Below are positions 7,509 through 26,148 of a stretch of 64,000 nucleotides of DNA, piece by piece (position 1 is the first letter of the stretch; each line of letters opens with the position of its first letter). A program made the translations under genes and the position numbers. The notes under the pieces are model-generated. The model was not told the DNA's origin. It was given only the letters and a program-made list of their open reading frames with translations, and did no database searches. Source of the stretch: Candidatus Sericytochromatia bacterium (GTDB lineage: Bacteria; Cyanobacteriota; Sericytochromatia; S15B-MN24; UBA4093); the NCBI GenBank assembly GCA_036676495.1, contig JAKFCT010000080.1:1-64000 (forward strand), written 5' to 3'.

Positions 7509-8183
7509 CTAGAATGTCATCCGGATGCCCGCGATCGACGTCCCGAAGAGCGTCGCCTCGAAGCCCCCGAACTTGAGCGCCGTCTCCGGCAGGAACTGCA
7601 GCATCGGCAGGTAGAAGTCCTGGTTGCCCGCCGAGAAGGAGGCCGTCCGCGCGTCCCCGGGAGCCCAGCTGGCCCCCCCGAAGGTCCAGGCCTGCCCGCC
7701 GTTCTGGTTGGGACCCACGTAGTAGGTCATCCCGATCGGGTAGCGCATGATGAACCACGGGGTGATGGGCAACGACAGCAGCACGTACGCCGATGCGGCC
7801 CCCATGTTCTGGAAGGCGTCAGGAACGTTCTTCACCTGGGAATCCATGAGCTTGCCGTAATCCCCCGTCGGAATGCTGAGGCGGCCGCCCACCCCGAGAT
7901 TCCAGCCGTCGGCGTCACCCAGCAAGCGAAGGGTCGCGCGGGCGCCGATCCCGCCCCAGGCCGTGCCTGCCTTGGAGTCCCGGGCGTCCACCCCGATGAT
8001 CAGGTTCGGGCTGATGCCCAGGTCGACCGAGAAGGCTCCGGGGTCGAAGCCGATCCCGAGGTTCCCCGCGCCCATGTCGGTGCGCGGCCCGGTTCCGGCG
8101 GCGGCGGGCATGGCCGCCCCCGCGATCAGCATCCCGGCGATGAGGGTTCCTGCGAGCGTCTTCTTCATGATGCGGTTCTCCAT
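7509..8183 (-). CDS. Exported hypothetical protein, possible small outer-membrane beta-barrel
   Basis: AAGGAGG RBS, Sec signal (AMPAAA), alternating Gly/aromatic strands, C-terminal Phe (GIRMTF). Confidence 0.55.
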   Translation of the reverse strand: MENRIMKKTLAGTLIAGMLIAGAAMPAAAGTGPRTDMGAGNLGIGFDPGAFSVDLGISPNLIIGVDARDSKAGTAWGGIGARATLRLLGDADGWNLGVGGRLSIPTGDYGKLMDSQVKNVPDAFQNMGAASAYVLLSLPITPWFIMRYPIGMTYYVGPNQNGGQAWTFGGASWAPGDARTASFSAGNQDFYLPMLQFLPETALKFGGFEATLFGTSIAGIRMTF

Positions 8184-8355
8184 CGTAGGCCTCCTTCCTT
8201 GAGTCACCTCTCACCCTACTGCCTCCCGATCACGAGATCGCTCACATGACGCTCGTCGCTGCGCCCGAGGCTTGCCGGCCATGTGGAAGGGCTTGCATAT
8301 CAGCGAGCGACAAGGCTAAAATCGAGCGTTTCCCTGTCCTGAGAGGAGCCGCCCG

Positions 8356-9822
8356 ATGCCGATTCGCGATCTTCCCCCGTTGCTCTGGCTGTTGGCCGCC
8401 CTGGTGGCCGTCGCCGTCATCGGGATCGCGCTCTTCCGGAACTTCCGCGCCCCCGACTCCGAGACCCTCCCCCCGGCGGGCGCCCTGCGCTGGCTTCCCC
8501 CGGCGCTGCTGGCCCTCATGGCCATCGGCACCTTCTTTCTCGCGCCCAGCGGGGAGAAGGCGGGACTGGCGATCGCCGGCCTCCTCGTGGCGGGATCCCT
8601 CGGCTGGGCCTTCGGCATGGGCCCGTCCTGGCTCTTCGGGCGCGACGAGCCCGCCCGTGACCTGCTCGCCCGCGGGGCCGCTGCCCTCGGCCTGCTGGTC
8701 CTGGCCGACGCCCTCGTCCCGGATCCGGTCCTCGGCAGCTACGTGGTCATGGGCGGCCTGCTCGGCCTCTCCTGCACCGCCCTGCCCCTCGCGCTCGCGG
8801 CCCATCCTCGCGCCGAAGGCCTGAGCGCCGCGCTGGGCCTCGCGGCCGTGGCGGGAGCCGCCATGATCTGGGGCGATCGCGCCTTCCCCGACGTCTCGCT
8901 CGGCTCCGCCTGGGCGCTGGGCCTGACCGCCCTCACCTTCGGGATCGCCTACGCCATGACCTGGCTTCCCCGCAACGCGGCCCCCTTCGTCGGCGCCGCC
9001 CTCACCATGGCGCTCGTCGCTCCCCTCGGCTTCTGGGGCTTCCGGCTCGACGCCAACGTGGTCTTTCCCTCCCTCATGGGCTTCGTCCTCGCCCTCCTCC
9101 TCTCCCTGCTCTTGCTGGCGACCGAGCGCATCAGCCCCGAGCGTTCGGGCCCCCTTCCAGCCCTGGCCCTGGTCCTGGTTGCCGGCGGCTTCCTGCTGCT
9201 CGCCAATCGTCTCTTCGGCATGCTGGGCGTGGGTCTCACGGGAATCGGCCTTTCCGTCCTGATCCTGGCGCCGGGGCGCGCGGCGATGCTCACGGGCATC
9301 CTGGTCTCGGGCTTCGCGGGTCGCGCCTTCCTCCAGCTCTTCCTGGATCGGACCTACCTCAACCAGTACGGCGTGGACCTGACCCATACCTACACCTCCT
9401 TCGGGCTGATCGCCGCCTTCTTCGTCCCCTTCGCCCTGGCCGCCCTCCGCCGGACCCTCTCCCCCTCGGGCGTTCTCCTGGGCATCGAGGCCTTTGTGTT
9501 GCTGTCCCTGCCTGCCTTGATGGGGTACTTCATCCACGTGGATCCGCTGGCGAGCTACCTCGCGGGCCTGCTGGTCACCGTCTACGTGCTGGGAATCCTG
9601 GCCGAGGAAGGTCTCACCACCTACCGCTTCGCGCCCTTGATGCCGCCCTTGCTGCTTTCGGCCGCCGCGGTCAGCGTGCTCTCCGCCCCCTGGCTCATCA
9701 CGGTCCTGAACGCTCCCCGCAAGGACCGCCTGATCGTCTTCGCCCTGGTGATCCTCCTGCTGCTCGCCTACCTGATCGCCCTGGTGCGCCAGCGCCCCGC
9801 CGCTCCGGCAGAAGCGCTCTAG
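8356..9822 (+). CDS. Uncharacterised polytopic membrane protein
   Basis: AGGAG RBS; hydrophobic throughout (more than 12 probable TM helices); no recognised transporter motif; first gene of an operon with PBP and SpoIID. Confidence 0.75.
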   Translation: MPIRDLPPLLWLLAALVAVAVIGIALFRNFRAPDSETLPPAGALRWLPPALLALMAIGTFFLAPSGEKAGLAIAGLLVAGSLGWAFGMGPSWLFGRDEPARDLLARGAAALGLLVLADALVPDPVLGSYVVMGGLLGLSCTALPLALAAHPRAEGLSAALGLAAVAGAAMIWGDRAFPDVSLGSAWALGLTALTFGIAYAMTWLPRNAAPFVGAALTMALVAPLGFWGFRLDANVVFPSLMGFVLALLLSLLLLATERISPERSGPLPALALVLVAGGFLLLANRLFGMLGVGLTGIGLSVLILAPGRAAMLTGILVSGFAGRAFLQLFLDRTYLNQYGVDLTHTYTSFGLIAAFFVPFALAALRRTLSPSGVLLGIEAFVLLSLPALMGYFIHVDPLASYLAGLLVTVYVLGILAEEGLTTYRFAPLMPPLLLSAAAVSVLSAPWLITVLNAPRKDRLIVFALVILLLLAYLIALVRQRPAAPAEAL

Positions 9823-9824
9823 GC

Positions 9825-10748
9825 TTGGGTTTTTCATTGCTCGTCCGCCCTCTGGCGGCCTCTTTCCTGGCTCTCGCGCTCATCAGCGGGCCCTCACAGG
9901 CTTCCGAACTGCCTTTGCAGGGGGCAGCCCAGCGGGCGCTGGGGGATCGAGCGGGCTGTCTGGTGGCGTTGGATGCCCGGGACGGAAGCCTGAGGGCCGT
10001 GGTCAACCCGAAGGTCGCGGCTGGGACGGCGTATCCCGTGGGCTCGCTGGCCAAGCTGGTGACGGGACTGGCGGCGCTGGAGGCCGGCTTGACCGATGGG
10101 GCCCGGCGGCTTCCGTGCAAGGGCAAGTTCGAGCGCTGGAAATGCTGGCGGGCGCACGGGGATCAGACCCTCGAGGAGGCGATCGCCAACTCCTGCTCCA
10201 GCTATTTCTTCGCGGTTGGCCGCGAGCTGGGCGCGCGCCGGATGAACCGCGCCTTCAGCGAGGCGGGCTTCGGGCGCCTCACCGGCAGCGACCTTCCCGG
10301 CGAGGTGGCGGGCACGCTCACTCCCGCCCGGACCCGGGCCGATCTCACCGAACTCGCCTATGGCGACACGTCCGCGTTGCTCGCGACGCCGTTGCAGGTG
10401 GCCAGCTGGGTGGGGGCGATCGCCAACGGCGGAACCCGCTACGCCCCTCACTTCGACTCCTCTCCGTCGCGCGTCCTGGGGACCCTGACCGGAAAAGGGG
10501 GGCTCGACCTCATCCGGACGGGAATGCGCCGTGCGGTGCTGGAAGGTTCGGCCAAGGGAGCGGACGTCCCTCGGCTCTCGGTACACGGGAAGACCGGAAC
10601 CTCGACGCAACTGAATGCCACTCACCGCCAGCATGGCTGGTTCGTGGGCTTCGCCGACGGGCTGGTTTTGGTGGTCTTCGTCAAGGACGGCAACGGTTAC
10701 GAGGATGCCGCCCCCATCGCCCGCGAGGTCTTCGCTGCATGGCCTTGA
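9825..10748 (+). CDS. Penicillin-binding transpeptidase domain-only protein
   Basis: GSLAK (SxxK), NSCS (SxN variant), GKTGT (KTG), ATPLQVA, HGWFVG; signal peptide, no dimerisation or transglycosylase domain. Confidence 0.88.
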   Translation: MGFSLLVRPLAASFLALALISGPSQASELPLQGAAQRALGDRAGCLVALDARDGSLRAVVNPKVAAGTAYPVGSLAKLVTGLAALEAGLTDGARRLPCKGKFERWKCWRAHGDQTLEEAIANSCSSYFFAVGRELGARRMNRAFSEAGFGRLTGSDLPGEVAGTLTPARTRADLTELAYGDTSALLATPLQVASWVGAIANGGTRYAPHFDSSPSRVLGTLTGKGGLDLIRTGMRRAVLEGSAKGADVPRLSVHGKTGTSTQLNATHRQHGWFVGFADGLVLVVFVKDGNGYEDAAPIAREVFAAWP

Positions 10749-11848
10749 GAACGCTGCTTTTCACCCTACTGCTCGCCTGGGGAGTCGCCCTCGGCCTGGC
10801 GTTGCCGGCAACGGCCCAGCAGCGCAGCGTCGAGGTGCGGATCCTGGAGCGCTGGGTGGGAAGGGTCGTGGAGGTCGAGGCTCCCCGGGGAGCCGTCGTG
10901 CTGCGGGGGCGGCCCGTTCCGGGACGCGTCAAGCTGGAGGCCCGGGGCCACCAGCTCTGGCTCAACAACCAGCTCGTGCTGGGAGCGAACCTCGAGATCG
11001 GGCGTCCCATCGAGTCCAGCCAGTTCGAGATTCGCTGGGAAGGGCGCAAGCGCAAGTACCCCGGCATGCTTCGGGTTCGCGCGAATGATGGCCAGCTCGT
11101 CCTGGTCAACGAGGTCCCGCTGGAAGTTTACGTGGCTGGGGTCGTGAGCGCCGAGATGCCGGAGAGCTGGCCCTTGGCCGCCCTGCGCGCTCAGGCCGTG
11201 CTGGCCCGGACGCTGGGCCTGAAAGGCGGCGACCATCCGGGCGGCATGCTCTGCGACTTGACCCATTGTCAGGTTTACACGGGAGAGCGAAACGCGGATG
11301 CGCTTCAGGTGGCCCAAGAGACGCGCGGGCGGGTGCTGACCTATCAGGGAAGCCTGATTCAGCCGCTCTTCCATTCGACGTGCGGGGGCGAGCGGGTCTC
11401 GAACGCCCTGGCGTTCGGGGGAGCGGCCCTTCCGTATCTTCAGGAAGGCTCGGATCCGTATTGCGGGGACTCGCCCCATGCGGCGGGCTGGAGCGTCCGG
11501 GTGCTCGATTCCGAGCTGGCCCAGGCCCTCGACATGCCCAGAATCCAGTCCTTAGCGGTCCTTTCCCGCACCGAAGGGGGCTGGGTGGCCCAGGTCGGGG
11601 TGGACGGGCGAAAGATGACGGGTTATCGGCTCTGGCAGGCGATCGGCCGGGAGCTCGGCTGGGGAGTGCTGAAGAGCATGCGCTTTTCGGTACGCCGGGA
11701 AGGCCATGCCTTTGTCTTCGAGGGCAAGGGGCTGGGCCACGGGGTCGGGCTTTGCCAGTGGGGCGCCCGGGGGCAGGCGGCGAAGGGGATTCCCTACGCG
11801 CGGATATTGGCGTCGTACTTTCCGGGGACGGCGATCGCCCGCCGGTAG
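10739..11848 (+). CDS. SpoIID/LytB family lytic transglycosylase
   Basis: YVAGVVSAEMP...ALRAQAVLART, CDLTHCQVY, FHSTCGG, GHGVGLCQWGA; signal peptide; start overlaps the PBP end. Confidence 0.92.
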   Translation: MALRTLLFTLLLAWGVALGLALPATAQQRSVEVRILERWVGRVVEVEAPRGAVVLRGRPVPGRVKLEARGHQLWLNNQLVLGANLEIGRPIESSQFEIRWEGRKRKYPGMLRVRANDGQLVLVNEVPLEVYVAGVVSAEMPESWPLAALRAQAVLARTLGLKGGDHPGGMLCDLTHCQVYTGERNADALQVAQETRGRVLTYQGSLIQPLFHSTCGGERVSNALAFGGAALPYLQEGSDPYCGDSPHAAGWSVRVLDSELAQALDMPRIQSLAVLSRTEGGWVAQVGVDGRKMTGYRLWQAIGRELGWGVLKSMRFSVRREGHAFVFEGKGLGHGVGLCQWGARGQAAKGIPYARILASYFPGTAIARR

Positions 11849-11852
11849 AGAA

Positions 11853-11877
11853 TTGTCCCCCCGTCAAGGGGGGACAA
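11853..11877. terminator. Hairpin between convergent SpoIID and GNAT genes
   Basis: TTGTCCCCCC-GTCAA-GGGGGGACAA perfect 10-bp stem. Confidence 0.65.
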
Positions 11878-11888
11878 AAATCGAGGGC

Positions 11889-12398
11889 CTACGCGAGGCT
11901 CGCGAAAGGCTCGGGGTAACGGATCGAGCCGCTCACGCCGGACAAGGCGCCGGGCACCAGTTCGAGGGCCATGTAGGCTGCACCCAGCTCGGAGTACGGG
12001 CTCTTGAGGGCCTGACCCTTCGCCGATGAGAAGCCGAAGCGCGGGTAGTAGTCGGGGTGTCCCAGCACGACGACGACCGTGTAGCCCCGCTCGCGGCACA
12101 GGGCGAGCCCGCGCTCGACGAGGGCCGTCCCGACGCCTCTACCCTGGAAATCCGGCGTGACCGCCATGGGAGCCAACGCCGCCGCCTTGATCTTGCCTCC
12201 CGTCGTCTCGGCTTGCAGCCTGCTGAACAGAAGATGCCCCACGACTTCCCCGTCTACCTGAGCCACGAGCGAAAGGACGACGTCGCCGGAGGCGCGGAGG
12301 GCGTCGATGAGCTGGCCTTCGGCATCACCGCCGAAGGCCTGGCGGTTGATGTCTCGGATGATGGCGATGTCTGCGGGGGTTTCTTCTCGTATCAGCAT
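11889..12398 (-). CDS. GNAT family N-acetyltransferase (YhbS-like)
   Basis: IREETPAD, LAPMAVTPDFQGRGVGTAL, VLGHPDYYPRFGF. Confidence 0.92.
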   Translation of the reverse strand: MLIREETPADIAIIRDINRQAFGGDAEGQLIDALRASGDVVLSLVAQVDGEVVGHLLFSRLQAETTGGKIKAAALAPMAVTPDFQGRGVGTALVERGLALCRERGYTVVVVLGHPDYYPRFGFSSAKGQALKSPYSELGAAYMALELVPGALSGVSGSIRYPEPFASLA

Positions 12399-12542
12399 GG
12401 CGAACCTCGTGCGTGTATTTGGACCATGCATTGTAACAGACCTGAGGCGTTTTTTTGAGCCGCGGACGAGCGAGCGTCGCGCGACGGAGGCCGGATCGCG
12501 GGGACATGAGGACGGGAGCGCCTGCGGGAATCTACGGATAGG

Positions 12543-12562
12543 AAACTAACGAACGTTAGTTT
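12543..12562. promoter_or_regulatory. Putative TetR operator
   Basis: Perfect inverted repeat AAACTAACG-AA-CGTTAGTTT between divergent GNAT and TetR genes. Confidence 0.7.
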
Positions 12563-12620
12563 ATAGTCGAGCCATCGGAGCGAATCCCCCTCCGATTGAC
12601 CGTGGAAGTGAGCGATCGCC

Positions 12621-13259
12621 ATGTCACCCACCCGTCCCCGGGGCGCGACCCCGACCAAGCAGCGCATCTTCGAGGCGGCCGTCGAGCTGTTTTCCTGCGA
12701 GGGCTACAGCGCCGTCTCGGTCCGCGACCTGACCCGCGCGGTCGGGATTAAGGAAAGCTCGCTCTACAACCACTTCGCGAGCAAGGAAGCCATCCTGGAG
12801 GCCATCTACCAGCACTTCCAGGCGGAAATGGCCAAGGTCAGGCCGCCATCGAACCTTTCCGACCTCATCGCGACCGTTCCCACCGAGTTCCTGCTCAGGA
12901 AGGGCTTCGAGCGCTTCCTCGAGGTGGCCGACACCCCGCTCATGGCCCGCATCTACCGGATCCTCGTGGTCGAGCAGTTCCGCGACCCGCGCGCCTGCGA
13001 CCTCATGGAGGGGCTCTTCGAGTTTCCGCTGGCCGCGGCCACGCAGCTCTTCGAGGCGATGGCGCAGGCCGCGTCCTCGCTCGGCACGGCGAGGCAGCTC
13101 GCCATCACCTACCAGTACGCCCTGCATGCCCTCGTCGCCCAGTACAGCCTCAAGAAGCACCACGGCCAGGACACCCGCGAGATCGAGCAGCGCATCTCCG
13201 AGCACATCGCCGGAACGGCCGCGCTGATCGATCGCCTTCTCAAAGGAGCCTCGCAATGA
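12621..13259 (+). CDS. TetR/AcrR family transcriptional regulator
   Basis: TKQRIFEAAVELF...GIKESSLYNHFASKEAI HTH. Confidence 0.95.
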   Translation: MSPTRPRGATPTKQRIFEAAVELFSCEGYSAVSVRDLTRAVGIKESSLYNHFASKEAILEAIYQHFQAEMAKVRPPSNLSDLIATVPTEFLLRKGFERFLEVADTPLMARIYRILVVEQFRDPRACDLMEGLFEFPLAAATQLFEAMAQAASSLGTARQLAITYQYALHALVAQYSLKKHHGQDTREIEQRISEHIAGTAALIDRLLKGASQ

Positions 13260-14200
13260 AGAAGCCCTTCGTCGTCGCCAGCCTGCTCTCCGCGTTGCTC
13301 ATTCTGCCCGGTTGCCGGGAGGACAAGCACGGCTCCATCTACGTCACCCCCGAGAACGAAGCCAAGATCATGGCGCTCTACGACGGCCGCCTTGCTGATT
13401 GGCCGGTCGCCTACGAGGCCTTCTCGGTGCCGACCCGCTACGGAAAGACCCATGTGCTCGCGAGCGGTCCCAAGGACGCTCCGCCCGTGCTCCTGATCCA
13501 CGCCATGGGCATCACCGCCACCATGTGGCAACCCAACATCGCGGAACTCAGCCGGAACTACCGCGTCTACGCCATTGACACCATCGGAGACCTCGGGCGC
13601 AGCAAGCTGGACACGCTCGACCACTACCCGGGGGATGGCCGCGCCTACGCCCTCTGGCTCAATGACGTCATGGATCGCCTGGAGATCGAGCGCACCCACG
13701 TCGTGGCGGCCTCGATGGGCGGCTGGATTTCCATGAACTTCGCTGCCGACTATCCCCAGCGGGTCCGCAGCCTCGCCCTGCTCGGGCCTCTGGGGTTCAA
13801 CTCCGCGAAGGACGTGATCTTCCGCCTAATGCAGATGGTCCTCATCCCCACCCGTGAAAACAAGGAAGCCTTTACCTACTGGGTCCTCGGGGAGCATCCC
13901 GTCGTGCGCAAGGCCTACACGGAGTACATGACCACCGCCTTGGATTGCCGCAGCAAGCTCGGAACCCCGGGCGACCTCTCCGACGAGCAGTTGCGGCGCC
14001 TCTCCGTCCCCGTGCTCGTCATGCTAGGGGGGAAGGACAATCCCATCGGGGATGCCCAGCGGGCCTCGGAGCGCGCACGGCGGCTGATCCCGCAGGTCGA
14101 GGTGGAGATCTTTCCGAATTCGGGCCACCTGGTCAACACCGAGCATCCCGAGCAGGTCAACGCTCGCATCCTGGAGTTCTTCGAAGCGGCTTCGCGCTGA
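13256..14200 (+). CDS. Alpha/beta hydrolase, probable lipoprotein
   Basis: Lipobox LPGC; nucleophile elbow ASMGG, GGKD acid, SGHL catalytic His; ATGA overlap with TetR. Confidence 0.88.
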   Translation: MKKPFVVASLLSALLILPGCREDKHGSIYVTPENEAKIMALYDGRLADWPVAYEAFSVPTRYGKTHVLASGPKDAPPVLLIHAMGITATMWQPNIAELSRNYRVYAIDTIGDLGRSKLDTLDHYPGDGRAYALWLNDVMDRLEIERTHVVAASMGGWISMNFAADYPQRVRSLALLGPLGFNSAKDVIFRLMQMVLIPTRENKEAFTYWVLGEHPVVRKAYTEYMTTALDCRSKLGTPGDLSDEQLRRLSVPVLVMLGGKDNPIGDAQRASERARRLIPQVEVEIFPNSGHLVNTEHPEQVNARILEFFEAASR

Positions 14201-14239
14201 CGGGCGGGAGTCCAGTGAGCGCCACATGCCTCCGGGGGT

Positions 14240-14315
14240 CTGGATTCCCGCTTTCGCGCGAATGACGCTCAAGTATGCGGGGGCTGGATTCCCGCTTTCG
14301 CGGGAATGACGCTCA
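14240..14315. repeat. Two tandem REP-like palindromic units
   Basis: CTGGATTCCCGCTTTCGCG(C/G)GAATGACGCTCA at 14240 and 14284; the same unit recurs at 31404-31602. Confidence 0.8.
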
Positions 14316-14387
14316 TGCGGGCGAGGGTGACTTGACGACGTAAGCGGGTTGCGGGGGATAATGGTTGCCTGCATGTGAGGAGGAGAG

Positions 14388-15011
14388 GTGGCATTGCGCT
14401 GGCAACTCATGGGCTCGCTGCTGGTGACGGGGCTCCTGGGAACCCCGGCTTTTGCATTGCCGCTTCACGGCTACCAGCACGACCGAGCGCTCGCCCGCGA
14501 GGCCCATGCCATCGCCGTTCAGGCGGCCAAAGCCTATCTCTTCGAGGGGAAGAAACCCTCTGGCTTGCCGGCAAAACTGGACCCGCGTCTGAAAGTCCCC
14601 GGGGGAGCCTTCGTCACCATCACGATCGGCGGTGAGACCCGCGGCTGCTGGGGGACGGTTCATCCGCAGCGCCCCTTCCTGGCCCAGGAGATCGCCGTGG
14701 CGGCGGTCAAGGCCTTGAGGGTCGATTATCGCCACCGTCCCATCGCCCGTCACGAATGGTCCGAGCTCGACTTCTACGTCTCGCTGGTCGGCCCCCTGGA
14801 GCCCGTGAGCAACGCCGCTTCCATCCGCCCCAAGTACGACGGCCTCTTCGTCACCAGCGGGAGCCGGGGAGGAGTCCTCTTGCCCGGGGAGGCCAAGACC
14901 GCCCGCTGGCAGGTGGCCGAGTGCCGCCGCAAGGCCGGCCTGAGGCCGGACGAGCCCGCCGTCATGTTTCGTTTTCCCACCGTCGTCTACGGACCAGAGG
15001 ATGCCATCTAG
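14388..15011 (+). CDS. AMMECR1 (AmmeMemoRadiSam protein A-like) domain protein with signal peptide
   Basis: AGGAGG RBS + GTG; GAFVTI...ETRGCWG, ALRVDYRH, GLFV...GGVLLP...RKAGL AMMECR1 motifs; N-terminal h-region ending PAFA. Confidence 0.85.
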   Translation: MALRWQLMGSLLVTGLLGTPAFALPLHGYQHDRALAREAHAIAVQAAKAYLFEGKKPSGLPAKLDPRLKVPGGAFVTITIGGETRGCWGTVHPQRPFLAQEIAVAAVKALRVDYRHRPIARHEWSELDFYVSLVGPLEPVSNAASIRPKYDGLFVTSGSRGGVLLPGEAKTARWQVAECRRKAGLRPDEPAVMFRFPTVVYGPEDAI

Positions 15012-18000
15012 ATGCTGAACGCCAACGCCTCGCGCAACCCCGCCATGATCTGGCTGGTCATCCTCGTGGTCCTGCTGACGGGCTTCACGGGGGCCGGCAT
15101 TTTGGCCGCCGAGAAGCCGACCGGTTCGGTGACGGGCGTGGTCCTGGACAACGAGGGTCAGGCCCTCGCGAACGCCTCGGTCCACTTCATGGGCAACGTC
15201 AACCGCACGGCCAAGACCCGCGATGACGGCTCTTTCCGGATGGATCGCCTGCCCATCGGGCGTTACAACGTTCAGGCCCGCGACCGGGGTTACGAAGCCC
15301 AGTGGAGCAGTCCTCCCATTCTGGTCGAGGAGGGGAAGACCCTCGAAGGCCTGAAGTTCAACCTCTCTCCCCGGGCCCCGAGCCTGACGGCCGCACAGAC
15401 CCAGCGGGTCTTCACGCCCGCGGAGAAGGTGCGCATCGGCGTTCGCGGCACGCTCATCGACCGCATGCACGTCAAACTCTACCAGCTCGACCTCTCCCGG
15501 GTCGTGAAGAACTCCAACTCCTTGATGGGCCTCGTCGACCGCAACCCCGCCGAACTCGGGGAAGGCGCCCTGCTGATCCGCGAGTGGGATCGCGAGATCG
15601 GGCGCCAGGCCGCCGACGAGGACGACTGGTTCTTCCGCGCCATCGAGATCAAGGACCTGAAGCCCGGCGCCTACATGATGCAGATGGATGGGCAGAGCGA
15701 TCTGCGCCGGCCCGGCATGCCCCATACCGCCTCGGACTCCTACTGGTTCGAGGTGACCCCGATCGGCATGGTGGCCAAGCGTTCGGGTAACGAGGCCCTG
15801 GTCTACGCCGTGGACTTCCTCACCAAGAAGCCGCTCTCCGGCGTCCAGGTCAAGGCTTACGACGATCGCGGCCTGCGCTGGACGGCCACCACCAACCGGG
15901 AAGGCCTGATCCGGCGCGCCTATCAGGGCGCGGACTCGCTCCTGCTGGTCGGCATGCTCGGGGATGCGCCCGCACATGCCCAGTCGTACTACTGGTCGGG
16001 GTCCCGGGAGTTCCGGACCTTGCTCTACACCGAGCGGCCCATCTACCGCCCGGATCAGGACGTCTTCTACAAGGGCATCCTCCGGGAAGACCAGCTCGGC
16101 AAGATCGTGAACCGGGCGAACCTGCCCGTGACCGTTCAGGTGCTCGATCCCCAGGAGAACGTGGTTCACGAGCTCCATACGCGGACCAATGCCGTCGGCA
16201 CCTTCAACGGCCAGCTCAAGCTGGGCTCGGAGCCTCCCCTGGGAGACTACCGCCTGGTCGCGCTGGTGGCGGGCTCGCGCTACGAGTCGACGTTCAAGGT
16301 CCAGGAGTACCGCAAGCCCGAGTTCAAGCTCGAGGTCCAAACCCCGCAGGAGCGCTACGTCTCGGGAGAGACGGCCCAGGCGGTGGTCTCGGCCAATTAC
16401 TATTTCGGCGCGCCGGTGAGCGGCGCCAAGATCAACTACACCGTCTACTCCCGCCCCTACTCTCCGTGGGTCACGGAGGAGGACGCGTTCTACGCGAACT
16501 TCGGCGGGCTCGACGACTACGGCTGGGGCTACAGCAACGTGGTGATGCAGGGCGAGGCCACGACGGACGACGCGGGCCACGTCACCCTGAACATCCCCAC
16601 CGAGATTCAGCCGGATCCCCAGGGCGACTCCTCCGACCAGCGCTACATCGTGGAGCTGGAGGGCGTGGACGCCAGCCGTCAGGTGGTGAAGGGCAAGGGC
16701 GGCTTCCTGGTCACCCGGGGCGCCTTCACCCTGGAGACCACTCCCGACCGCTACGTTTACCGGCCCGGCGCCAAGGGCAATGTCGTCGTCCGGGCGCAGG
16801 ACTACGACGGCAAGCCCGTCTCGACCGACGTGACGGTCGAGCTGCTGCGCATCGAGACCCGCGTGCGCGAGGTGAACGACATCACCCAGTACGAGACCGT
16901 GACCCATCCCGCCGGCTCCTGGTCCGCCACGACGGATGCCCATGGGCGGGCGACGCTGGACTTCGAGATTCCGAAGGAGGGCGGGGAGTACCGCCTGCGG
17001 GCGAAGTCCCGGGATGCGGGCGGCCGCGAGATCGTGCAATCCGCCTGGCTCTGGGTGGCCGACGAGGAATGGGCCGGCAGCTCGCAAGCTTACGGCATGG
17101 TGCAGTTGACCTTCGACAAGAAGCGCTACGAGCCCGGGGACGTCGCGAAGGTGCTCGTGCAGCTACCGAATGCCGAGGTCAGCCCGCTCATCACCGTCGA
17201 GGGGCAGAGGCTGCATAGCGCCCAGGTGCTGGGGGCCGGGAAGCGGAGCCGGATCGTGGAGATCCCGGTGACGAAGGACTTTGCGCCCAACGTCTTCGTG
17301 GTGGCGTCGGTGGTGGACGGCAAGTCGTTCCACCTGGCCGAGAAGTCGCTGAACGTGACGCCGGGCGATCGCTTCCTCGACGTCCGCATCACGCCCGGCA
17401 AGGAGCGTTACCTGCCGGGTGAGGAGGCTTCCGTGACCGTCACCACCCGGACGGCGGACGGCAAGCCCGTCCCCGCCGAGGTATCCCTGGGCGTCGTCGA
17501 CGAGGCCATCTACGCGCTGGCTCCCGATGAGACCCCGGATATCCGGGCGGTCTTCCACGGGCCGCGCTGGAACCGGGTCACGACCAGCTACTCGTTCATC
17601 GAGGACTACTCGGGCGGGCCGGGCAAGGACACCGAGGAGCCGCGGGTTCGCAAGAACTTCAAGGATACGGCGGCCTGGTTCCCCACCGTGCAGACGGGTC
17701 CCGGCGGGTCGGCCTCCGTGCGCTTCATGCTGCCGGACAACCTCACCACCTGGGTGGTGACGGCCCGGGCGGTGAACGCCGAGACCCAGGTGGGCGCGGC
17801 GCGCGAGAAGTTCCTGGCCACCAAGGACCTGCTGCTGCGGATGGCGATGCCGCGCTTCATGGTGATGGGGGACAGGGTGGCGATCGCGACCTTGGTCCAT
17901 AACTACACGAAGCAGGAGCAGGAGGTTCGCCTCCAGACCGCGGCAACGAACCTCAAGTTCGATGGAGGGGCCGAGCGGACGGTCAAGGTGCCGCCGAACG

Positions 18001-19787
18001 GCGTCTTCCGCTTCGACACCTGGGTCGAACCCCAGGCCGTGGGCACGGCGAGCATGACCGTGATTGCCCGCGGCTCGGGAGCCTCCGATGCACTCGAGCT
18101 TTCGTTGCCGGTGCTGGCGCATGGGACTCCCGAGCGCGTGGCCTTCGCGGGTCCGGCGAGCGAAGCCAAGCCGGCGGAGTTCAGCGTGGAGTTGCCGAAG
18201 GAGGCGATCGCCGAGACGGTCTCGCTGAAGCTGTCGCTGGATCCGACCCCGGCGGCGGCCATGCTGGGCGCGCTCGACTACCTGCGCCGCTACCCGTACG
18301 GCTGCCTCGAGCAGACGACGAGCCGCTTCGTGCCCGAGATCCGCGCCTACCAGACGGTCGCGGCCCTGGGCCTGCCCCGTCCGGCCTTCGTGGCCGAGAT
18401 GCCGGCGCTCGTCGACGAAGGCCTCAAAAAGATCTTGACCGCCCAGCGTGCCGATGGTGGCTGGGGCTGGTTCGCCAACGACCAGAGCGAGGCGGACCTG
18501 AGCGCCTACGTGCTCTACGGTCTCTACGAGACCCGACAGGCGGGCTTCATGGTGCCCGAGGCGCCAGTTCGTTCGGCGATTCGCTTCCTGAAGAGCGCCG
18601 GAGCCCGGATCGACAAGGATGTGGTGACTCCGAGCGAGGTTCGCCGCGGGGCGGGCCCGGATGCGCTGGCGTCAATTGCCTGGTCCCTGAGCTACTGGGG
18701 GCAGGCGGACAGCAGCCTGCGCGACAAGCTCTGGCGCGGGCGGAACGGCCTTTCGAACTACGGATTGGCCCTGGCGACGATGGCCTTCCAGCAGTCGGGT
18801 GACCCGCAGAAGGCTCGCACGACCTGGGACATGCTGAAGAAGCAGGCCAAACGGACCGGGACCCTGGTTCACTGGGAGAGCCGCGCGCAGCGGTACTCCT
18901 GGTACGACATGGCGACCGAGACGACGGCCTACGCCGTGCGGGCGGGCCTCCTGGTGGAGCCGAACGCGTCGGAGGTGACGGGGGCGGTTCGCTGGCTGGT
19001 GGTGAACCGACAGGGCGATCGCTGGCTGAGCACCAAGGACACGGGCGCCATCGTGATGGCCCTAGCCGATGCGATGCGCAATGCCGCCGAGACGGGGATT
19101 CCGACGGCGGCGCAGGTGCTGCTCGACGATCAGCCCGTTCAGCGTCTCGACCTCCAGGGCGAGGCGCGTTACCTGGGTGGCCAGGTGACGCTGGCGGGGG
19201 ATCTGCTGAAGCCGGGCCGGCATACGCTGACGGTGCGGGCCGAGGGGACGGGCGAGCTGCCCGCCTCGGGCTTGCTGTCGTACGTGGCGGCGCGGGAGGA
19301 CATCCAGCCGCAGGCGTCCAAGGAGCTCGACTTGAAGCGGGAGTACTTCCTGCTGGATGAGAGGCTCTTCGCCGAGTCGAAGGTCGAGGGGGGCGGGTAC
19401 AGCCGCTACTTCGATCCCAAGGTGGTCTCGGGCCTGCGGCGCGTGGGCGGGGACGTGAAGTCCGGCCAGAAGGTGCTGGTGCGCTTGACGGTGGACGTCA
19501 AGGAGCCCGTGCGCTACATGGTGCTCGAGGACCCGTTGCCGGCGGGCGCCGAGGTGCTGGACGAGCAGAGCGGCGGATGGGCGTACGCCTGGAGCTCGCA
19601 GACCGTGCGGGACGAGAAGATGGTCTTCTTCCAGCGCGAGATGGCGACGGGCTCGGTGCCGTTCTACTACGTGATGCGGCCGCAGATTCCGGGGCGGTAC
19701 CACGTGCTGCCGCCGGTCATCGAGGGGATGTACGCCCCCGAGGTGCGCGCGCGTGGGGCTGAGAGCCGCCTGGAGATCCGGGAATGA
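15012..19787 (+). CDS. Bacterial alpha-2-macroglobulin with intact thioester
   Basis: YTERPIYRP (MG2), VQEYRKPEF, NFKDTAAW, LPDNLTTW, thioester YPYGCLEQT (about 18291-18317), EDPLPAGAE; N-terminal TM/signal plus carboxypeptidase-regulatory-like domain. Confidence 0.95.
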   Translation: MLNANASRNPAMIWLVILVVLLTGFTGAGILAAEKPTGSVTGVVLDNEGQALANASVHFMGNVNRTAKTRDDGSFRMDRLPIGRYNVQARDRGYEAQWSSPPILVEEGKTLEGLKFNLSPRAPSLTAAQTQRVFTPAEKVRIGVRGTLIDRMHVKLYQLDLSRVVKNSNSLMGLVDRNPAELGEGALLIREWDREIGRQAADEDDWFFRAIEIKDLKPGAYMMQMDGQSDLRRPGMPHTASDSYWFEVTPIGMVAKRSGNEALVYAVDFLTKKPLSGVQVKAYDDRGLRWTATTNREGLIRRAYQGADSLLLVGMLGDAPAHAQSYYWSGSREFRTLLYTERPIYRPDQDVFYKGILREDQLGKIVNRANLPVTVQVLDPQENVVHELHTRTNAVGTFNGQLKLGSEPPLGDYRLVALVAGSRYESTFKVQEYRKPEFKLEVQTPQERYVSGETAQAVVSANYYFGAPVSGAKINYTVYSRPYSPWVTEEDAFYANFGGLDDYGWGYSNVVMQGEATTDDAGHVTLNIPTEIQPDPQGDSSDQRYIVELEGVDASRQVVKGKGGFLVTRGAFTLETTPDRYVYRPGAKGNVVVRAQDYDGKPVSTDVTVELLRIETRVREVNDITQYETVTHPAGSWSATTDAHGRATLDFEIPKEGGEYRLRAKSRDAGGREIVQSAWLWVADEEWAGSSQAYGMVQLTFDKKRYEPGDVAKVLVQLPNAEVSPLITVEGQRLHSAQVLGAGKRSRIVEIPVTKDFAPNVFVVASVVDGKSFHLAEKSLNVTPGDRFLDVRITPGKERYLPGEEASVTVTTRTADGKPVPAEVSLGVVDEAIYALAPDETPDIRAVFHGPRWNRVTTSYSFIEDYSGGPGKDTEEPRVRKNFKDTAAWFPTVQTGPGGSASVRFMLPDNLTTWVVTARAVNAETQVGAAREKFLATKDLLLRMAMPRFMVMGDRVAIATLVHNYTKQEQEVRLQTAATNLKFDGGAERTVKVPPNGVFRFDTWVEPQAVGTASMTVIARGSGASDALELSLPVLAHGTPERVAFAGPASEAKPAEFSVELPKEAIAETVSLKLSLDPTPAAAMLGALDYLRRYPYGCLEQTTSRFVPEIRAYQTVAALGLPRPAFVAEMPALVDEGLKKILTAQRADGGWGWFANDQSEADLSAYVLYGLYETRQAGFMVPEAPVRSAIRFLKSAGARIDKDVVTPSEVRRGAGPDALASIAWSLSYWGQADSSLRDKLWRGRNGLSNYGLALATMAFQQSGDPQKARTTWDMLKKQAKRTGTLVHWESRAQRYSWYDMATETTAYAVRAGLLVEPNASEVTGAVRWLVVNRQGDRWLSTKDTGAIVMALADAMRNAAETGIPTAAQVLLDDQPVQRLDLQGEARYLGGQVTLAGDLLKPGRHTLTVRAEGTGELPASGLLSYVAAREDIQPQASKELDLKREYFLLDERLFAESKVEGGGYSRYFDPKVVSGLRRVGGDVKSGQKVLVRLTVDVKEPVRYMVLEDPLPAGAEVLDEQSGGWAYAWSSQTVRDEKMVFFQREMATGSVPFYYVMRPQIPGRYHVLPPVIEGMYAPEVRARGAESRLEIRE

Positions 19788-20467
19788 CGGGAAGGGTGAA
19801 GGTGGGGGTGGCGATCGCCATCTCAACAGTCTCACTTCTTGTCCTGGGCACCTCCTTCTGGCTGAACCGCCCATTTCAATCAGAGCTAGGCTCGTATCGC
19901 ACGAGTTTGGCAGATCGTACCGAGGCCCAGCGCCACAACATCCGGCAAGCGTCAATGGCGCTGAATGGGGTAGTCGTCGAGCCAGGGGAGACGTTTTCGT
20001 TCAATGAAGCAGTTGGTCCCCGGACGGCTGAACGTGGCTACCGTGAAGCCCCTGCCTACATGGAACGTGACCTCGTAACGAGTATTGGTGGGGGGATTTG
20101 CCAAGTTTCCTCAACACTTTATAACGCGGCTACACTTTCGGGTTTTGTCATTGTAGAGCGTCATCCCCACTCCCGTCGGGTTGCTTCGGTTCCTCCTGGT
20201 AGGGATGCTACGGTGTGGTATGGGATGTCCGACCTGCGCTTTAGGAACGGGTCCTCGACTCCAGTTCGATTGGCAGTGAGGGTTGCAAACGAAGCATTAT
20301 TCGTTGCAGTATGCGCTCGAAAGTCGATGGACCCAGTTATTGTAGTACGGACTGAACCGGTAGAGTCATCTCCAGGGAGCTTAGCATTTGTGACGGTCAG
20401 GACCATGACTATTGCCGGAAAGCTTGGCATGAGAGAAGTGTTGTCGTTTGATGTGTATTCTAATTAA
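19784..20467 (+). CDS. VanW family protein
   Basis: PGETFSFNEAVG, GGGICQVSSTLYNA, ERHPHS...PGRDATV...DLRFRN; N-terminal TM; ATGA overlap with the A2M stop. Confidence 0.92.
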   Translation: MTGRVKVGVAIAISTVSLLVLGTSFWLNRPFQSELGSYRTSLADRTEAQRHNIRQASMALNGVVVEPGETFSFNEAVGPRTAERGYREAPAYMERDLVTSIGGGICQVSSTLYNAATLSGFVIVERHPHSRRVASVPPGRDATVWYGMSDLRFRNGSSTPVRLAVRVANEALFVAVCARKSMDPVIVVRTEPVESSPGSLAFVTVRTMTIAGKLGMREVLSFDVYSN

Positions 20468-20524
20468 TCGGCCGTATTCTTCCATAACTAAGGAGTGGAA
20501 GCTCGAATTCCTTTGGGGGGCTTT

Positions 20525-20554
20525 GGCCCGGTGACTTAGTCACCGGGCCGTTTT
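20525..20554 (+). terminator. Rho-independent terminator after vanW
   Basis: GGCCCGGTGACT-T-AGTCACCGGGCC followed by GTTTT. Confidence 0.75.
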
Positions 20555-21038
20555 ACTGGTGCAATCCCGGAGGGACACTCGAACTCTTAATACCGCTGGC
20601 CCACATATCTACTGGCCTTCTTTCTGAGTAAACGTTAAGCGGAATCCCTAGTTGGATGGGGGTAGTTGTTCTACTCCTTGTAGTTCAATCTAGCGCTACT
20701 CGCCTCACCGCAGTTCATAAGCAACCAAGAACCAGAAGTATAAAAGTGAGATAAGCCGAGAAGGATACCTCAGAAAACTAATGTAGGTGCTGTCATAGCT
20801 TTTGAAAAGCAGATATAAATCTAGAGAAAAACTAGGGAAGTCTTTGGATTTGTGACGATAATGTCTTAAATTGAGAGCGTTGGGGTAGATCAAGAACATA
20901 GTTTTCAAAATGCGGAGTATCGATCCAAAGTTAGACACAACTCAGGTTGAGTGAGAACATCTTCTCAGTGAGGCACGGTATTCATCCTCATTCGATGATT
21001 CTAAACTGTTACCTATCTGCCTAATGAAAGGAGCGTCT

Positions 21039-22097
21039 ATGGCGAATATACAGCGACAATTTATCAAATTTCATGATGCGATCAAACTAACCTTCGACGA
21101 TGACGATGTGCTGCGTCAAGCACGTGACTCCGCGCTCGAGACCCTCAAGACGCGTCTTAAAGCGAATTTCGAGAATAAGGGAGAAAAGGCACCTAAGTTT
21201 GAGAAGTTCGATCAGGGCAGTTATGCGATGTGTACAGGCATTAAGCCCCAGAAGAGCGATTATGACATTGACGTGGGCTTGAAATTCGAGATTGATAAGG
21301 ACGATTATGTTGATGCGGTGAAGGTCAAAGAGTGGGTGCACGACGCACTGAGCGATGATACGCATAAGGTTGTGGTGCGACGGCCATGTGTCACGGTCTA
21401 CGTCTATGAGGACGACGGGGAAACCTTGAAGCATCACGTGGATTTCGCTGTGTACGCTGCCAACAACAAGGATAGTAATCTGTACCTAGCCAAGGGCATG
21501 TTGAACTCCGAATCAAGTAATCGCGTGTGGGAAGTCGCCGACCCTAATGGCTTGTTGGATGCCATTAGCAGCAAGTTTAAGGACGAGGATGCGGAGCAGT
21601 TTCGGCGGGTTGTGCGCTACCTCAAGCGCTGGCGCGACTTGCGCTTTAGCATTGAAGGTAATGCCGCTCCCATTGGAATCGGCCTGACATTCGCCGGTTA
21701 CCACTGGTTCAATCCAGTCAATCGGGTTGTAGACGCGTGGAGTGGAACGACAGAGCGCGACGACCACACGGCGCTCTTGAACCTAGTATCAGCGATGCTC
21801 AATCGGTTCAACGCGACCGTTGAGGACGATGAGACCGGGTACCGTCTTGAAGTGACGCTGCCAGTGAACCCTGGTGGCGATCTATTCAAAAAGATGACCC
21901 TTAAACAAATGGGTACTTTCAAGGAAAAACTTGAAGTGCTCAAGGTGGCGCTTGAAGATGCCCAGGCCGAGACTGATCCTGTCAAGGCAGCCGAGATGCT
22001 AGTGAAACAATTTGGCGATGACTTCCAGGTCCCTACCTCTAAGTCCACGAGCAGTGCTAGTGGTCCGGGATATGTCGGGTCAAGTTCTTCGGGCTAG
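21039..22097 (+). CDS. CBASS cGAS/DncV-like nucleotidyltransferase (CD-NTase)
   Basis: AAGGAG RBS; QGSYAMCTGIKP...DYDIDV (GS...DxD), HVDFAVY third Asp, VRYLKRWRD; flexible tail ending in Gly (VGSSSSG*). Confidence 0.93.
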   Translation: MANIQRQFIKFHDAIKLTFDDDDVLRQARDSALETLKTRLKANFENKGEKAPKFEKFDQGSYAMCTGIKPQKSDYDIDVGLKFEIDKDDYVDAVKVKEWVHDALSDDTHKVVVRRPCVTVYVYEDDGETLKHHVDFAVYAANNKDSNLYLAKGMLNSESSNRVWEVADPNGLLDAISSKFKDEDAEQFRRVVRYLKRWRDLRFSIEGNAAPIGIGLTFAGYHWFNPVNRVVDAWSGTTERDDHTALLNLVSAMLNRFNATVEDDETGYRLEVTLPVNPGGDLFKKMTLKQMGTFKEKLEVLKVALEDAQAETDPVKAAEMLVKQFGDDFQVPTSKSTSSASGPGYVGSSSSG

Positions 22098-22104
22098 AGT
22101 CCCC

Positions 22105-23865
22105 ATGGCAATTGACGCCAAACTCAGAACTCTCCTCGAAAGCTTCGTTGACACGGGCGCCTGGCCAGGCGCCCGTGTGCTCTCGCACGAGCAAGCGGTG
22201 GAGCTTTCGCTCCCCGCGAAACACCTCGCAGTGCTCGAAGGTCCGGTCACCATTGGTGCACACACGATAACGTTATACCTTGGGCTTGAGCGTAGCTTCC
22301 CCCATAAGCTTCCCGGCATCTGGTTGGCAGAGCCTGGATGTTTGGGGCTGATCCCCCATGAAGATAACGAAGGTTTCATTTGCTATCACCGAAACGAGGG
22401 GATCGTAATAAACCGGCATGCTCCATTGGCTGTTATCCGTCAAGCATTAGAGCAGGCAATTCAAGTCTTGCGAGATGGCGAGAGAGGCACCAATAGTAGC
22501 GACCTGATGGAAGAGTTTGGGGCGTATTGGCTAAACCTGCCGTTGAGTTACACTGTACGGTCGGTGGTTGAACCAGCGTCACGCCCTAAGGCGATCTCAG
22601 TGGTATTGAAAGACGGTAAGCCTGACTGGCTGGGCGATTCGCCTACGGCTGTGACCAAGTTCTACCATGAGACACTAGGTGAACGTTCAGTGAGACGTGC
22701 TATCTATCTGCCCCTCTCACCGGATACCGTGCTCACGCCTCCGCAACGTGAACAGTTTTGGACAGTTCGGGACATTCGTCATATCGTCGACCGGCATGTA
22801 GCACCGAAAAACCGTCCGATTTTTCACAAATTGATGCGCCAACAAAAACCACGGGGAAATGACGAACTGTTGGTACTAGGTGTGCCCCGCCCAAGTGGCG
22901 GTGAAACCCTAATTGGCGTGGAATTCGCTAACGCGCGCCAATATTACCCACTTTTGCCAGGCGGAAGATGTACAGATGTGCGCCCGGTCCAGATTTCGCG
23001 CCGGGACCGCACATACTTACTGCCACGTGGTGGGGGTAACCTCGAACTGTCCCAAAAACACGTGCTATTGGTCGGTGCTGGGGCCGTCGGCGGCTACGTA
23101 GCAATGGCACTGGGGTCGGCTGGCTTGGGCAAGCTCACTATCGTGGACCATGATTACCTTAATCCCGAGAACATTTTCAGGCATGTTGTAGGCAAATCGT
23201 GGCTCGGTTCAAAAAAAGTCGACGCTGTCAAATCCTACTTGGAAGCTCGCTACCCGTTTATTGAGGTCCATGGTGTGGCTAAGCGGATCGAGGAGGCAAT
23301 CGAGGATAAGGACATCAGCCTGACGACATTCGATGCAATCGTAGTCGCTTTGGGAGTCGCGACTGTAGAGCTTTGGTTCAATGAGCAACTCTATGGGCTC
23401 GAAGCAGCGCCTCCAACCGTGTTTACCTGGCTAGAGCCTATGGGAATCGGCGGCCATGTCTTGCTTACCGGTGGATGGGGGTGGGGGTGGGAGCGCATAG
23501 GGTGCTTACAGTGCCTGTACACCCAACCTGACTCTGCCTTGGAGCCCTTTGTGACGAATCGGGCTGCTTTTGCCGCGCCTGGACACGATTACACCCGCGA
23601 TATGTTGGGCTGCGGTGGTGCCTTTGTTCCTTTTGCTGGCCTTGATGCGATTCGTACTGCCGAACTGGCTGTAAGGAGTGCCCTCGATGTGCTAGGGCGA
23701 AACGAACCGGGCCATCCATTGATTAGTTGGAAAGGGAATAACCGCGCGTTTCTTGCTGAAGGCCTAACTCTTACTCCCCGGTATTCGCAGAGCGAAAAAG
23801 TGCTCTGGGAAAATCGGTATGGGTATCAACTTCAGAATTGTATCGTGTGCGGGGAGGTCGAATGA
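22105..23865 (+). CDS. cap2: CBASS Cap2, E2-E1 (ThiF) ubiquitin-transferase-like protein
   Basis: E2-like FP...PHEDNEGFICY; E1 GAGAVGG, DHDYLNPENIFRH, CLQC, GCGG, C-terminal CIVC. Confidence 0.9.
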   Translation: MAIDAKLRTLLESFVDTGAWPGARVLSHEQAVELSLPAKHLAVLEGPVTIGAHTITLYLGLERSFPHKLPGIWLAEPGCLGLIPHEDNEGFICYHRNEGIVINRHAPLAVIRQALEQAIQVLRDGERGTNSSDLMEEFGAYWLNLPLSYTVRSVVEPASRPKAISVVLKDGKPDWLGDSPTAVTKFYHETLGERSVRRAIYLPLSPDTVLTPPQREQFWTVRDIRHIVDRHVAPKNRPIFHKLMRQQKPRGNDELLVLGVPRPSGGETLIGVEFANARQYYPLLPGGRCTDVRPVQISRRDRTYLLPRGGGNLELSQKHVLLVGAGAVGGYVAMALGSAGLGKLTIVDHDYLNPENIFRHVVGKSWLGSKKVDAVKSYLEARYPFIEVHGVAKRIEEAIEDKDISLTTFDAIVVALGVATVELWFNEQLYGLEAAPPTVFTWLEPMGIGGHVLLTGGWGWGWERIGCLQCLYTQPDSALEPFVTNRAAFAAPGHDYTRDMLGCGGAFVPFAGLDAIRTAELAVRSALDVLGRNEPGHPLISWKGNNRAFLAEGLTLTPRYSQSEKVLWENRYGYQLQNCIVCGEVE

Positions 23866-24365: not shown

Positions 24366-24383
24366 AAGCAGGATTATATCGCC

Positions 24384-26012: not shown

Positions 26013-26110
26013 CGCCAAACTAAAGGGGTAAGGAACACAGTCTGATTATTTCACCTGATGTTCTACGTGCAAAGGTCGTACCATTGGGATAGCGCTCGGA
26101 TAATCAACAG

Positions 26111-26148
26111 CAGACGACCCGCCGGGGTGTGAACCGGCGGGTCGTCTG
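26111..26148. terminator. GC-rich hairpin between convergent CBASS and HNH genes
   Basis: CAGACGACCCGCCGG-GGTGTGAA-CCGGCGGGTCGTCTG perfect 15-bp stem. Confidence 0.65.

Follow-up and report, generated by a model that had tools for sequence, protein, structure and literature searches.

A candidate envelope system in Sericytochromatia: six genes for a thioester macroglobulin, predicted wall enzymes, an exported AMMECR1 protein and a membrane protein modeled with a pyrophosphatase fold

Known macroglobulin clusters and the six-gene locus

Bacterial alpha-2-macroglobulins (A2Ms) are known from two genomic contexts, both of them poorly understood. The type II macroglobulins lack a thioester and lie in six-gene mag/yfa operons. 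The type I proteins, which carry the thioester, pair with PBP1c, a pairing that forms the basis of the hypothesis of a periplasmic protease trap combined with wall repair, and in the mag system the membrane partner MagB is described as holding the macroglobulin at the inner membrane (PMC5764988). Here we describe a third context. It lies in a 64,000-nucleotide stretch of DNA (the window) at the start of contig C80 (JAKFCT010000080.1) of a metagenome-assembled genome (MAG; labeled G000, 4.1 Mb, 106 contigs, completeness 92%) from an uncultured member of Candidatus Sericytochromatia, which are cyanobacterial relatives that do not photosynthesize, and consists of two gene triplets. The first encodes a polytopic membrane protein that we call MEMB, a small penicillin-binding protein (PBP) and a SpoIID-domain protein, and the second an exported AMMECR1-domain protein, a thioester A2M and a VanW-domain protein. 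We hold with moderate confidence that the six genes are functionally linked parts of a single envelope system with two modules. By analogy, the cluster is best read as a third architecture of the macroglobulin theme of trapping a protease and mending the wall, beside yfhM-pbpC and mag/yfa.

Genes were called from the listing of open reading frames (ORFs) and their translations, and domains were assigned with Pfam and NCBIfam scans (Table 1). MEMB and PBP are separated by a 2-nt gap, and PBP and SpoIID overlap by 10 nt, from the SpoIID ATG at 10739 to the PBP stop. AMMECR1 and A2M abut, A2M and VanW share an ATGA overlap, and a hairpin with a T run closes the second triplet 3' of VanW. The ATG at 10739 opens the predicted signal peptide of SpoIID (MALRTLL...); a start at 10115, which would give the longest ORF, was rejected because the extension overlaps the PBP gene in another frame. 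All six products are polytopic or have an N-terminal hydrophobic leader, and their export is predicted from these segments. The first-pass annotation had proposed six tightly joined genes with this domain content, all coding for exported or membrane-bound proteins, with the triplets parted by a block of GNAT, TetR and hydrolase genes. The ORF calls and the Pfam and NCBIfam scans bear out the genes, junctions and domains, the hydrophobic segments and polytopic topology agree with the predicted locations, and Pfam confirms the block.

The macroglobulin matches the Pfam families MG2 (3.9e-24), A2M_BRD (2.9e-21), bMG10 (3.5e-22) and TED (9.5e-19) as well as the family A2M (all at about 1e-19 to 1e-24), and its N-terminus consists of a hydrophobic anchor or signal followed by a CarboxypepD_reg domain. 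The CxEQ thioester motif, GCLEQ in the window copy, was found in 19 of 22 orthologues; contig ends truncate the remaining three before the site. Among PDB sequences the best matches were CD109 (2e-31) and YfhM (3e-26). The protein therefore has the features of a type I A2M, with CxEQ within the TED, a bait-region domain, MG domains and a C-terminal MG10; no lipobox Cys was found in its N-terminal hydrophobic segment and no PBP1c gene in the cluster. The N-termini of the orthologues (window positions 15012-15130) share a hydrophobic helix that leads into a conserved A-(I/L)-(L/A)-x-E-(K/R)-P-x-G, which, judged by eye, could serve for recognition or as a cleavage site for signal peptidase.

Compared with the yfhM (ECAM)-pbpC pair and Salmonella Sa-A2M, the locus shares the CxEQ motif, bait region, TED, MG10, a hold at the inner membrane and co-encoded peptidoglycan synthesis or cross-linking. 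The partners differ, in that PBP1c is replaced here by a transpeptidase-only PBP, SpoIID, VanW, an exported AMMECR1 and MEMB. The window A2M also differs from the YfhM type in lacking the lipobox Cys and in having an N-terminal CarboxypepD_reg domain, and YfhM is no nearer to it than CD109. With P. aeruginosa magABCDEF and E. coli yfaA-yfaT-yfaS-yfaQ-yfaP the locus shares a multi-gene operon, a macroglobulin with partners that resemble wall enzymes, and a SpoIID theme. The likeness of YfaQ to SpoIID, cited in the first-pass annotation, holds for the E. coli K-12 protein, which matches Pfam SpoIID at 7.2e-6 (27 bits versus a cut-off of 23); YfaT gave a weak NlpC/P60 match. The thioester, however, is absent from the mag/yfa macroglobulins and present here, and no DUF2138, DUF1175, DUF2135 or DUF2300 domain was found in the window cluster.

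The cluster thus joins known macroglobulin and wall themes through different families, and its exported AMMECR1 and MEMB are without precedent. No description of the six-gene cluster was found in a literature search whose coverage did not extend to subscription journals, in line with the earlier suggestion that the architecture is undescribed and differs from yfhM-pbpC and mag/yfa. The same search found no paper on a bacterial macroglobulin with AMMECR1 and, among the matches listed, none pertinent to a macroglobulin with VanW, and the main text of a study of archaeal macroglobulin neighborhoods mentions none of AMMECR1, VanW and SpoIID (PMC8416519).

Gene order in related and distant genomes

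We searched for AMMECR1 in 41 related genomes, retrieved 20 loci and mapped the window proteins onto them by tblastn; because the genomes compared are mutually related, the loci should not be counted as independent of one another. G003, G004, G005, G008, G020 and G024 each carry the six genes contiguously, with order and strand kept and no insert. A MEMB profile match just upstream of the PBP gene makes the G012 locus contiguous as well, for a total of seven genomes, four genera and two families. The loci of G006, G010, G014, G018 and G027 end at contig ends in a manner consistent with the cluster and add two families. Recurrence of this gene order among related genomes puts the arrangement far beyond chance. 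Most Sericytochromatia of this order carry the two modules as a single predicted operon, which in the genus of the window is parted by an insert. Relatives within that genus also carry inserts (TetR and hydrolase in G001; GNAT and about 2 kb in G002), and seven genomes of other genera have no GNAT/TetR/hydrolase block between SpoIID and AMMECR1. As the block is confined to the genus of the window, it is a genus-level insertion outside the system.

A different arrangement was found in family f3. The loci of G013, G017, G019, G023 and G025 contain only AMMECR1-A2M-VanW (that of G021 is cut by a contig end), and MEMB-PBP-SpoIID lie on a separate contig in all five of these genomes and in G011. 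Both modules are nevertheless present in 6/6 f3 genomes in which both were sought. Conversely, AMMECR1, MEMB and A2M were all unmatched in G015 (94% complete) and G016 (98%), and G022 (86% complete) gave no AMMECR1, no MEMB and a single weak match to the N-terminal part of A2M (E 6.5e-4). In G009 (83% complete) and G026 (64%), MEMB and A2M fragments were found and AMMECR1 was unmatched. The first-pass annotation had looked to contiguous clusters in other genomes for support and to triplets that never occur together for refutation. The seven contiguous clusters provide the former, and the triplets, both present in the f3 genomes and both missing from three others, do co-occur.

Over a wider sample MEMB was detected in 26 of 301 genomes of the phylum, of which 24 belong to the same order, one to the sister family f5 and one to another class. 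It was found in none of the 19 genomes of families f6 and f7 and in none of the 124 genomes of the largest family of the phylum.

The second module also occurs outside the lineage. A MAG labeled Deltaproteobacteria (L049) encodes VanW-AMMECR1-A2M with overlapping starts and unrelated transporters on the flanks. This type of AMMECR1 was found in two of 301 genomes of that phylum (E<=1e-15), the MAG itself and one weak match, and the trio is therefore sporadic there. A metagenome scan was seeded with the VanW alignment. Among its best 80 loci, five have A2M beside VanW, 74 have VanW alone and one has a distant PBP match 5 kb away. One metagenome contig (L096) carries PPIase-VanW-AMMECR1-A2M. Another (L070, GC 53%) carries A2M-VanW and next a 479-aa homologue of MEMB whose start overlaps the preceding gene (hhalign Prob 97.2%, E 3.4e-11).

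Gene fusions were observed as well. In G004 (L036:9751-11256, minus strand) one 501-aa ORF contains the SpoIID and AMMECR1 Pfam domains without a hydrophobic linker, and in three f4 genomes (G012, G020 and G024) the SpoIID and AMMECR1 coding regions share one open frame with a hydrophobic linker between them. A word-limited fusion search for AMMECR1, which misses the G004 fusion, returned only four, of AMMECR1-Memo or dioxygenase type, and none with SpoIID or A2M.

These data bear on whether the triplets are independent modules that have remained neighbors through inherited synteny and share no function. The separate contigs in family f3, the insert with its own regulator in the window, and the trio standing alone in L049 and L096 would all fit such an explanation. 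In L070, however, a lineage of different GC, the MEMB homologue directly follows A2M-VanW, the SpoIID-AMMECR1 fusion bridges the two modules, and the modules are present together or missing together. We consider independence of the modules very unlikely.

MEMB, AMMECR1 and the predicted wall enzymes

MEMB, the most unusual member of the cluster, had no match in Pfam, NCBIfam or PADLOC, its hidden Markov model matched none of the PDB sequences, and an Atlas feature search gave no lead (best score 0.80). A word index contained 19 relatives, none of them named. The AF2 model built from 18 orthologues (pLDDT 88.6, pTM 0.91) has 16 helices, and Foldseek placed membrane pyrophosphatases (M-PPases) first (E 5.6e-7, TM 0.64), with all 36 matches at E<=0.001 of that kind. 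VIA-align, which does not depend on Foldseek, superposed the model on 5gpj_A, the Vigna H+-PPase, with Z 26.4 and an rmsd of 3.2 Å over 448 residues, and on 8b37_B, the Pyrobaculum enzyme, with Z 25.9; the next match had Z 9.6. A second model, of 33 distant family members (about 20% identity to their lead; pLDDT 82.5), gave Z 26.6 and 25.4 to M-PPases and 10.1 to the next structure. Candidate assignments of MEMB as SEDS-like or ligase-like were dropped, as ArnT and oligosaccharyltransferase reached a Foldseek TM of at most 0.16.

The model matches the H+- and Na+-PPases (5gpj, 8b37 and 4av3) helix for helix, at Z 26 and about 3 Å over about 445 residues. In sequence, by contrast, M-PPases have about 700 aa and Asp-rich motifs, whereas MEMB has 488 aa and no PF03030 signature; hhalign against the canonical M-PPases of its own lineage gave a Prob of 0.6%, and the Asp-rich motifs of those encoded in the genome have no counterpart in MEMB. 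Of 66 scanned representatives of the family, 65 matched no Pfam family. The exception, P0132 (587 aa), aligns over residues 40-181 with the N-terminal part of PF03030 H_PPase at 24.7 bits (cut-off 29.7) and may be a sequence bridge from the MEMB family to the pyrophosphatases. The family is rare, with 162 representatives at E<=1e-3 among 1.84 billion in a profile search, mostly of 430-500 aa. Conserved throughout it are R285 (in RLFG), the motif G-V/I-D/N-L-T-H-x-Y and F-I/L-H. The hydrolytic center of M-PPases is cytoplasmic (PMC11210485), and by homology the conserved residues of the MEMB model would lie on the side of that center. As modeled, MEMB is pyrophosphatase-shaped, yet we do not class it as a pyrophosphatase.

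A canonical M-PPase of G000 is split over two contig ends (C53:1-1359 and C57:54741-55484). Since the genome has this enzyme, MEMB is an addition to it and not its replacement. No further family that combines the membrane-pyrophosphatase fold with loss of the catalytic motifs is known to us, and none was found described in the literature searched. The analysis uncovers a rare family of this predicted kind.

The AMMECR1 domain is found from archaea to humans and its function is enigmatic. The window protein matches PF01871 at 2.7e-29 and TIGR04335 at 88.7 bits, below the cut-off of 99. R85, C87, W88, G89, D113 and R115 are invariant in 18 orthologues and G86 is kept, while the residue after R115 varies. 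The protein thus shares with the family the RGChG and DxRa motifs, which are predicted to form its active site (PMC2034487). Most orthologues have an N-terminal hydrophobic leader. In place of LLPQ, found in the one cytoplasmic-type sequence of the alignment, the exported proteins have LLPGEA. They form a small subfamily of about 68 clusters below 1e-27 among 5.8 billion proteins, beyond which scores drop to the cytoplasmic AmmeMemoRadiSam type. The window protein differs from AmmeMemoRadiSam system protein A, as it is exported, scores below the TIGR04335 cut-off and is flanked by SpoIID (or the insert) and A2M, with no Memo or radical-SAM neighbor. At this locus AMMECR1 would be the periplasmic neighbor of a thioester protein, and one genome has it fused to SpoIID. 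A complex prediction for A2M 860-1591 with AMMECR1 27-207 scored 0.00 and counts neither way.

VanW matches PF04294 at 2e-48. VanW domains have been described as LD-transpeptidases (LDTs) with a Cys-His-Asp triad (PMC11348318), and C106, H129 and D141 of the window protein, invariant in alignments of 19 and of 10 sequences, are mapped onto the triad of Ldt4/5 by that invariance. If the assignment is correct, it would extend VanW-type LDTs into a diderm lineage. The PBP matches PF00905 at 1.9e-42 and covers only positions 303-590 of the 593 in the TIGR03423 profile, so that no pedestal (dimerization) domain is present. Its nearest PDB sequences are SpoVD and MrdA, and S74xxK77, S123 and K-T-G are conserved in 17 orthologues. 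It is predicted to be an exported class-B-type PBP reduced to the transpeptidase domain. The SpoIID protein matches Pfam SpoIID at 9.8e-25, TIGR02669 at 187.9 bits (cut-off 83.3) and a SpoIID sequence in the PDB at 1e-26. E139, which we take to be the equivalent of the catalytic Glu of SpoIID, is invariant in 18 orthologues, as are C172, C177, H212 and C215, and H176 is conserved in at least 90%. The protein is predicted to belong to the type of enzyme that cleaves the glycan strands of peptidoglycan.

VanW together with a small PBP or β-lactamase-like protein could also form an antibiotic sensing or resistance cluster that answers glycopeptides or β-lactams. VanW does match the NCBIfam model vanW-gen (1.1e-21), and the PBP gave weak matches to class D β-lactamase/BlaR. 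Both, however, fall far below the respective cut-offs (77.6 versus 365 bits for vanW-gen; 41 versus 250 for bla_class_D), van ligase, dehydrogenase and VanRS genes were not found nearby with Pfam, and the PBP most resembles the transpeptidase domains of PBP2/SpoVD. We consider a function of this kind scarcely probable.

Proposed function and genomic surroundings

Intact catalytic motifs are found throughout the cluster: CxEQ in A2M, Cys/His/Asp in VanW, SxxK and KTG in the PBP, the Glu of SpoIID, and RGChG/DxR in AMMECR1. On this basis we propose a sequence of events in which each activity and its place in the order are conjectural. Module 1 would comprise MEMB, the soluble class-B-type transpeptidase-only PBP and SpoIID, and module 2, also found outside the lineage, the exported AMMECR1, the thioester A2M at the inner membrane and the membrane-anchored VanW LDT. 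When the outer membrane is breached, a protease would cut A2M in the bait region and be trapped covalently through the CxEQ thioester. SpoIID would open or trim damaged glycan strands, the PBP would trim or cross-link pentapeptide stems and, as a DD-carboxypeptidase or DD-transpeptidase, supply tetrapeptides, and VanW would form 3-3 cross-links. AMMECR1, with its putative catalytic Cys, would act in the periplasm alongside A2M and SpoIID, and MEMB would serve as a membrane platform or transducer.

Two systems provide partial parallels. Under outer-membrane stress E. coli is described as mending its wall with LdtD, the PBP1B glycosyltransferase and a DD-carboxypeptidase (PMC12729407). The window cluster shares with this set a predicted LDT and a predicted DD-peptidase that would supply tetrapeptides. 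LdtD is a YkuD-type enzyme, however, whereas the one here is of the VanW type, no glycosyltransferase is recognizable, and the link to a macroglobulin is known from the genes alone. The SpoIID-SpoIIM-SpoIIP engulfment machine of B. subtilis relies on a polytopic membrane protein to bring in SpoIID together with another wall hydrolase (PMC5898192). MEMB with SpoIID and the PBP or AMMECR1 may be analogous, although no SpoIIM or SpoIIP homologue was found here.

A role in defense or repair is suggested by these analogies, and several observations weigh against it or against a single system. MEMB, AMMECR1, A2M and VanW match no PADLOC defense model, and the presence of MEMB in 24 of 27 genomes of the order (G000 included) resembles a housekeeping trait of the lineage more than an accessory defense island. 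The modules are unlinked in family f3. A distant MEMB homologue in another class (G572, L147:9373-10923, E 2.5e-20) has no PBP, SpoIID or A2M beside it; its neighbors include a TIR-TPR protein and two CarboxypepD_reg-domain proteins on the opposite strand. Because this homologue lies in an unrelated context, MEMB is not tied to A2M everywhere. Which face of the membrane carries the conserved MEMB site is ambiguous by Lys/Arg counts (10.6 versus 10.8 with alignment A4; 8.5 versus 5.8 with A9). The second PBP motif is S123-C124-x instead of SxN. In a C. difficile study, four of seven foreign VanW proteins are reported to lack LDT activity and three to be active (PMC11348318).

The wide distribution within the order could also mean that the cluster is a machine for building or anchoring the wall, in which A2M is a structural periplasmic protein tied to peptidoglycan by VanW, for example through a new N-terminus after signal cleavage, while during normal growth the remaining enzymes remodel the surrounding wall. 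The near-universal presence of the system in the order, the possible signal-peptidase site shared by A2M N-termini and the ATGA overlap of A2M and VanW are in line with this model, as is the description of LDTs that tether Lpp and outer-membrane proteins, the latter via the N-terminus, to peptidoglycan (PMC12729407). However, trapping requires both the thioester and the bait-region domain, and each orthologue that spans these parts retains them; no VanW enzyme is known to tether proteins, and the A2M cleavage site was judged by eye only. We regard wall building as unlikely.

The trap-and-repair reading gains in interest from the intact motifs and richer partner set, which make that hypothesis testable with defined enzymes. 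A bolder version, which we consider decidedly doubtful, is that MEMB founds a group of compact, non-hydrolytic M-PPase descendants that link a periplasmic machine to the ion-motive force or to a transmembrane signal. Three thiol or thioester chemistries would cooperate in this machine, those of the thioester in A2M, the thioacyl enzyme of VanW and the Cys of AMMECR1. VanW could, for example, attach A2M, alone or in complex with its protease, to peptidoglycan, and AMMECR1 could be a periplasmic acyl-transfer enzyme or a partner of SpoIID that acts on peptidoglycan peptides. If true, this machine would provide the first biochemical handle on the AMMECR1 family.

Table 1. Features of the cluster and its surroundings (window positions).
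Feature	Position	Strand	Description
MEMB	8356-9822	+	488 aa, predicted 16-helix inner-membrane protein; Pfam family none
PBP	9825-10748	+	307 aa, TTG start; transpeptidase domain only
SpoIID	10739-11848	+	Exported SpoIID/LytB-domain protein, ATG start
Genus-specific insert	11889-14200	mixed	GNAT, TetR and alpha/beta hydrolase (Pfam)
GNAT	11889-12431	minus	Pfam
TetR	12621-13259	+	Pfam
Alpha/beta hydrolase	13256-14200	+	Pfam
REP-like palindromic element, tandem pair	14235-14322	+	Two 44-nt units
AMMECR1	14388-15011	+	Exported AMMECR1-domain protein, GTG start
A2M	15012-19787	+	1591-aa thioester (GCLEQ) alpha-2-macroglobulin
VanW	19784-20467	+	Membrane-anchored VanW-domain protein, predicted LD-transpeptidase
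Terminator-like hairpin	20524-20550	+	12 bp, 9 GC pairs, then T run
Type II CBASS CD-NTase	21024-22097
Type II CBASS E1/E2 Cap2	22012-23865
Type II CBASS JAB Cap3	23838-24365
Type II CBASS endonuclease-SAVED effector	24384-26012
PtuA/PtuB-like PDC-M01 pair	27172-28605 and 26355-27179	minus

Directly after the VanW terminator the window contains a low-GC island (20600-28700; GC 41-54% versus 65-72% in the flanks) with the type II CBASS and the PtuA/PtuB-like pair of Table 1. The CBASS genes were rejected as part of the system, as the island is a low-GC insertion. On the other side, divergently upstream of MEMB, a 232-aa exported ORF without family (7509-8207, minus strand) has 69-80% identity to proteins in two genomes of the same genus only; it was likewise rejected, being conserved in its own genus only. 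The REP-like repeats that the first-pass annotation had seen between the triplets are real. The 44-nt unit has the palindromic core ATTCCCGC..GCGGGAAT, and copies are scattered through the genome: 39 matches lie on more than 20 of its contigs, two of them at 31404-31579 of the window.

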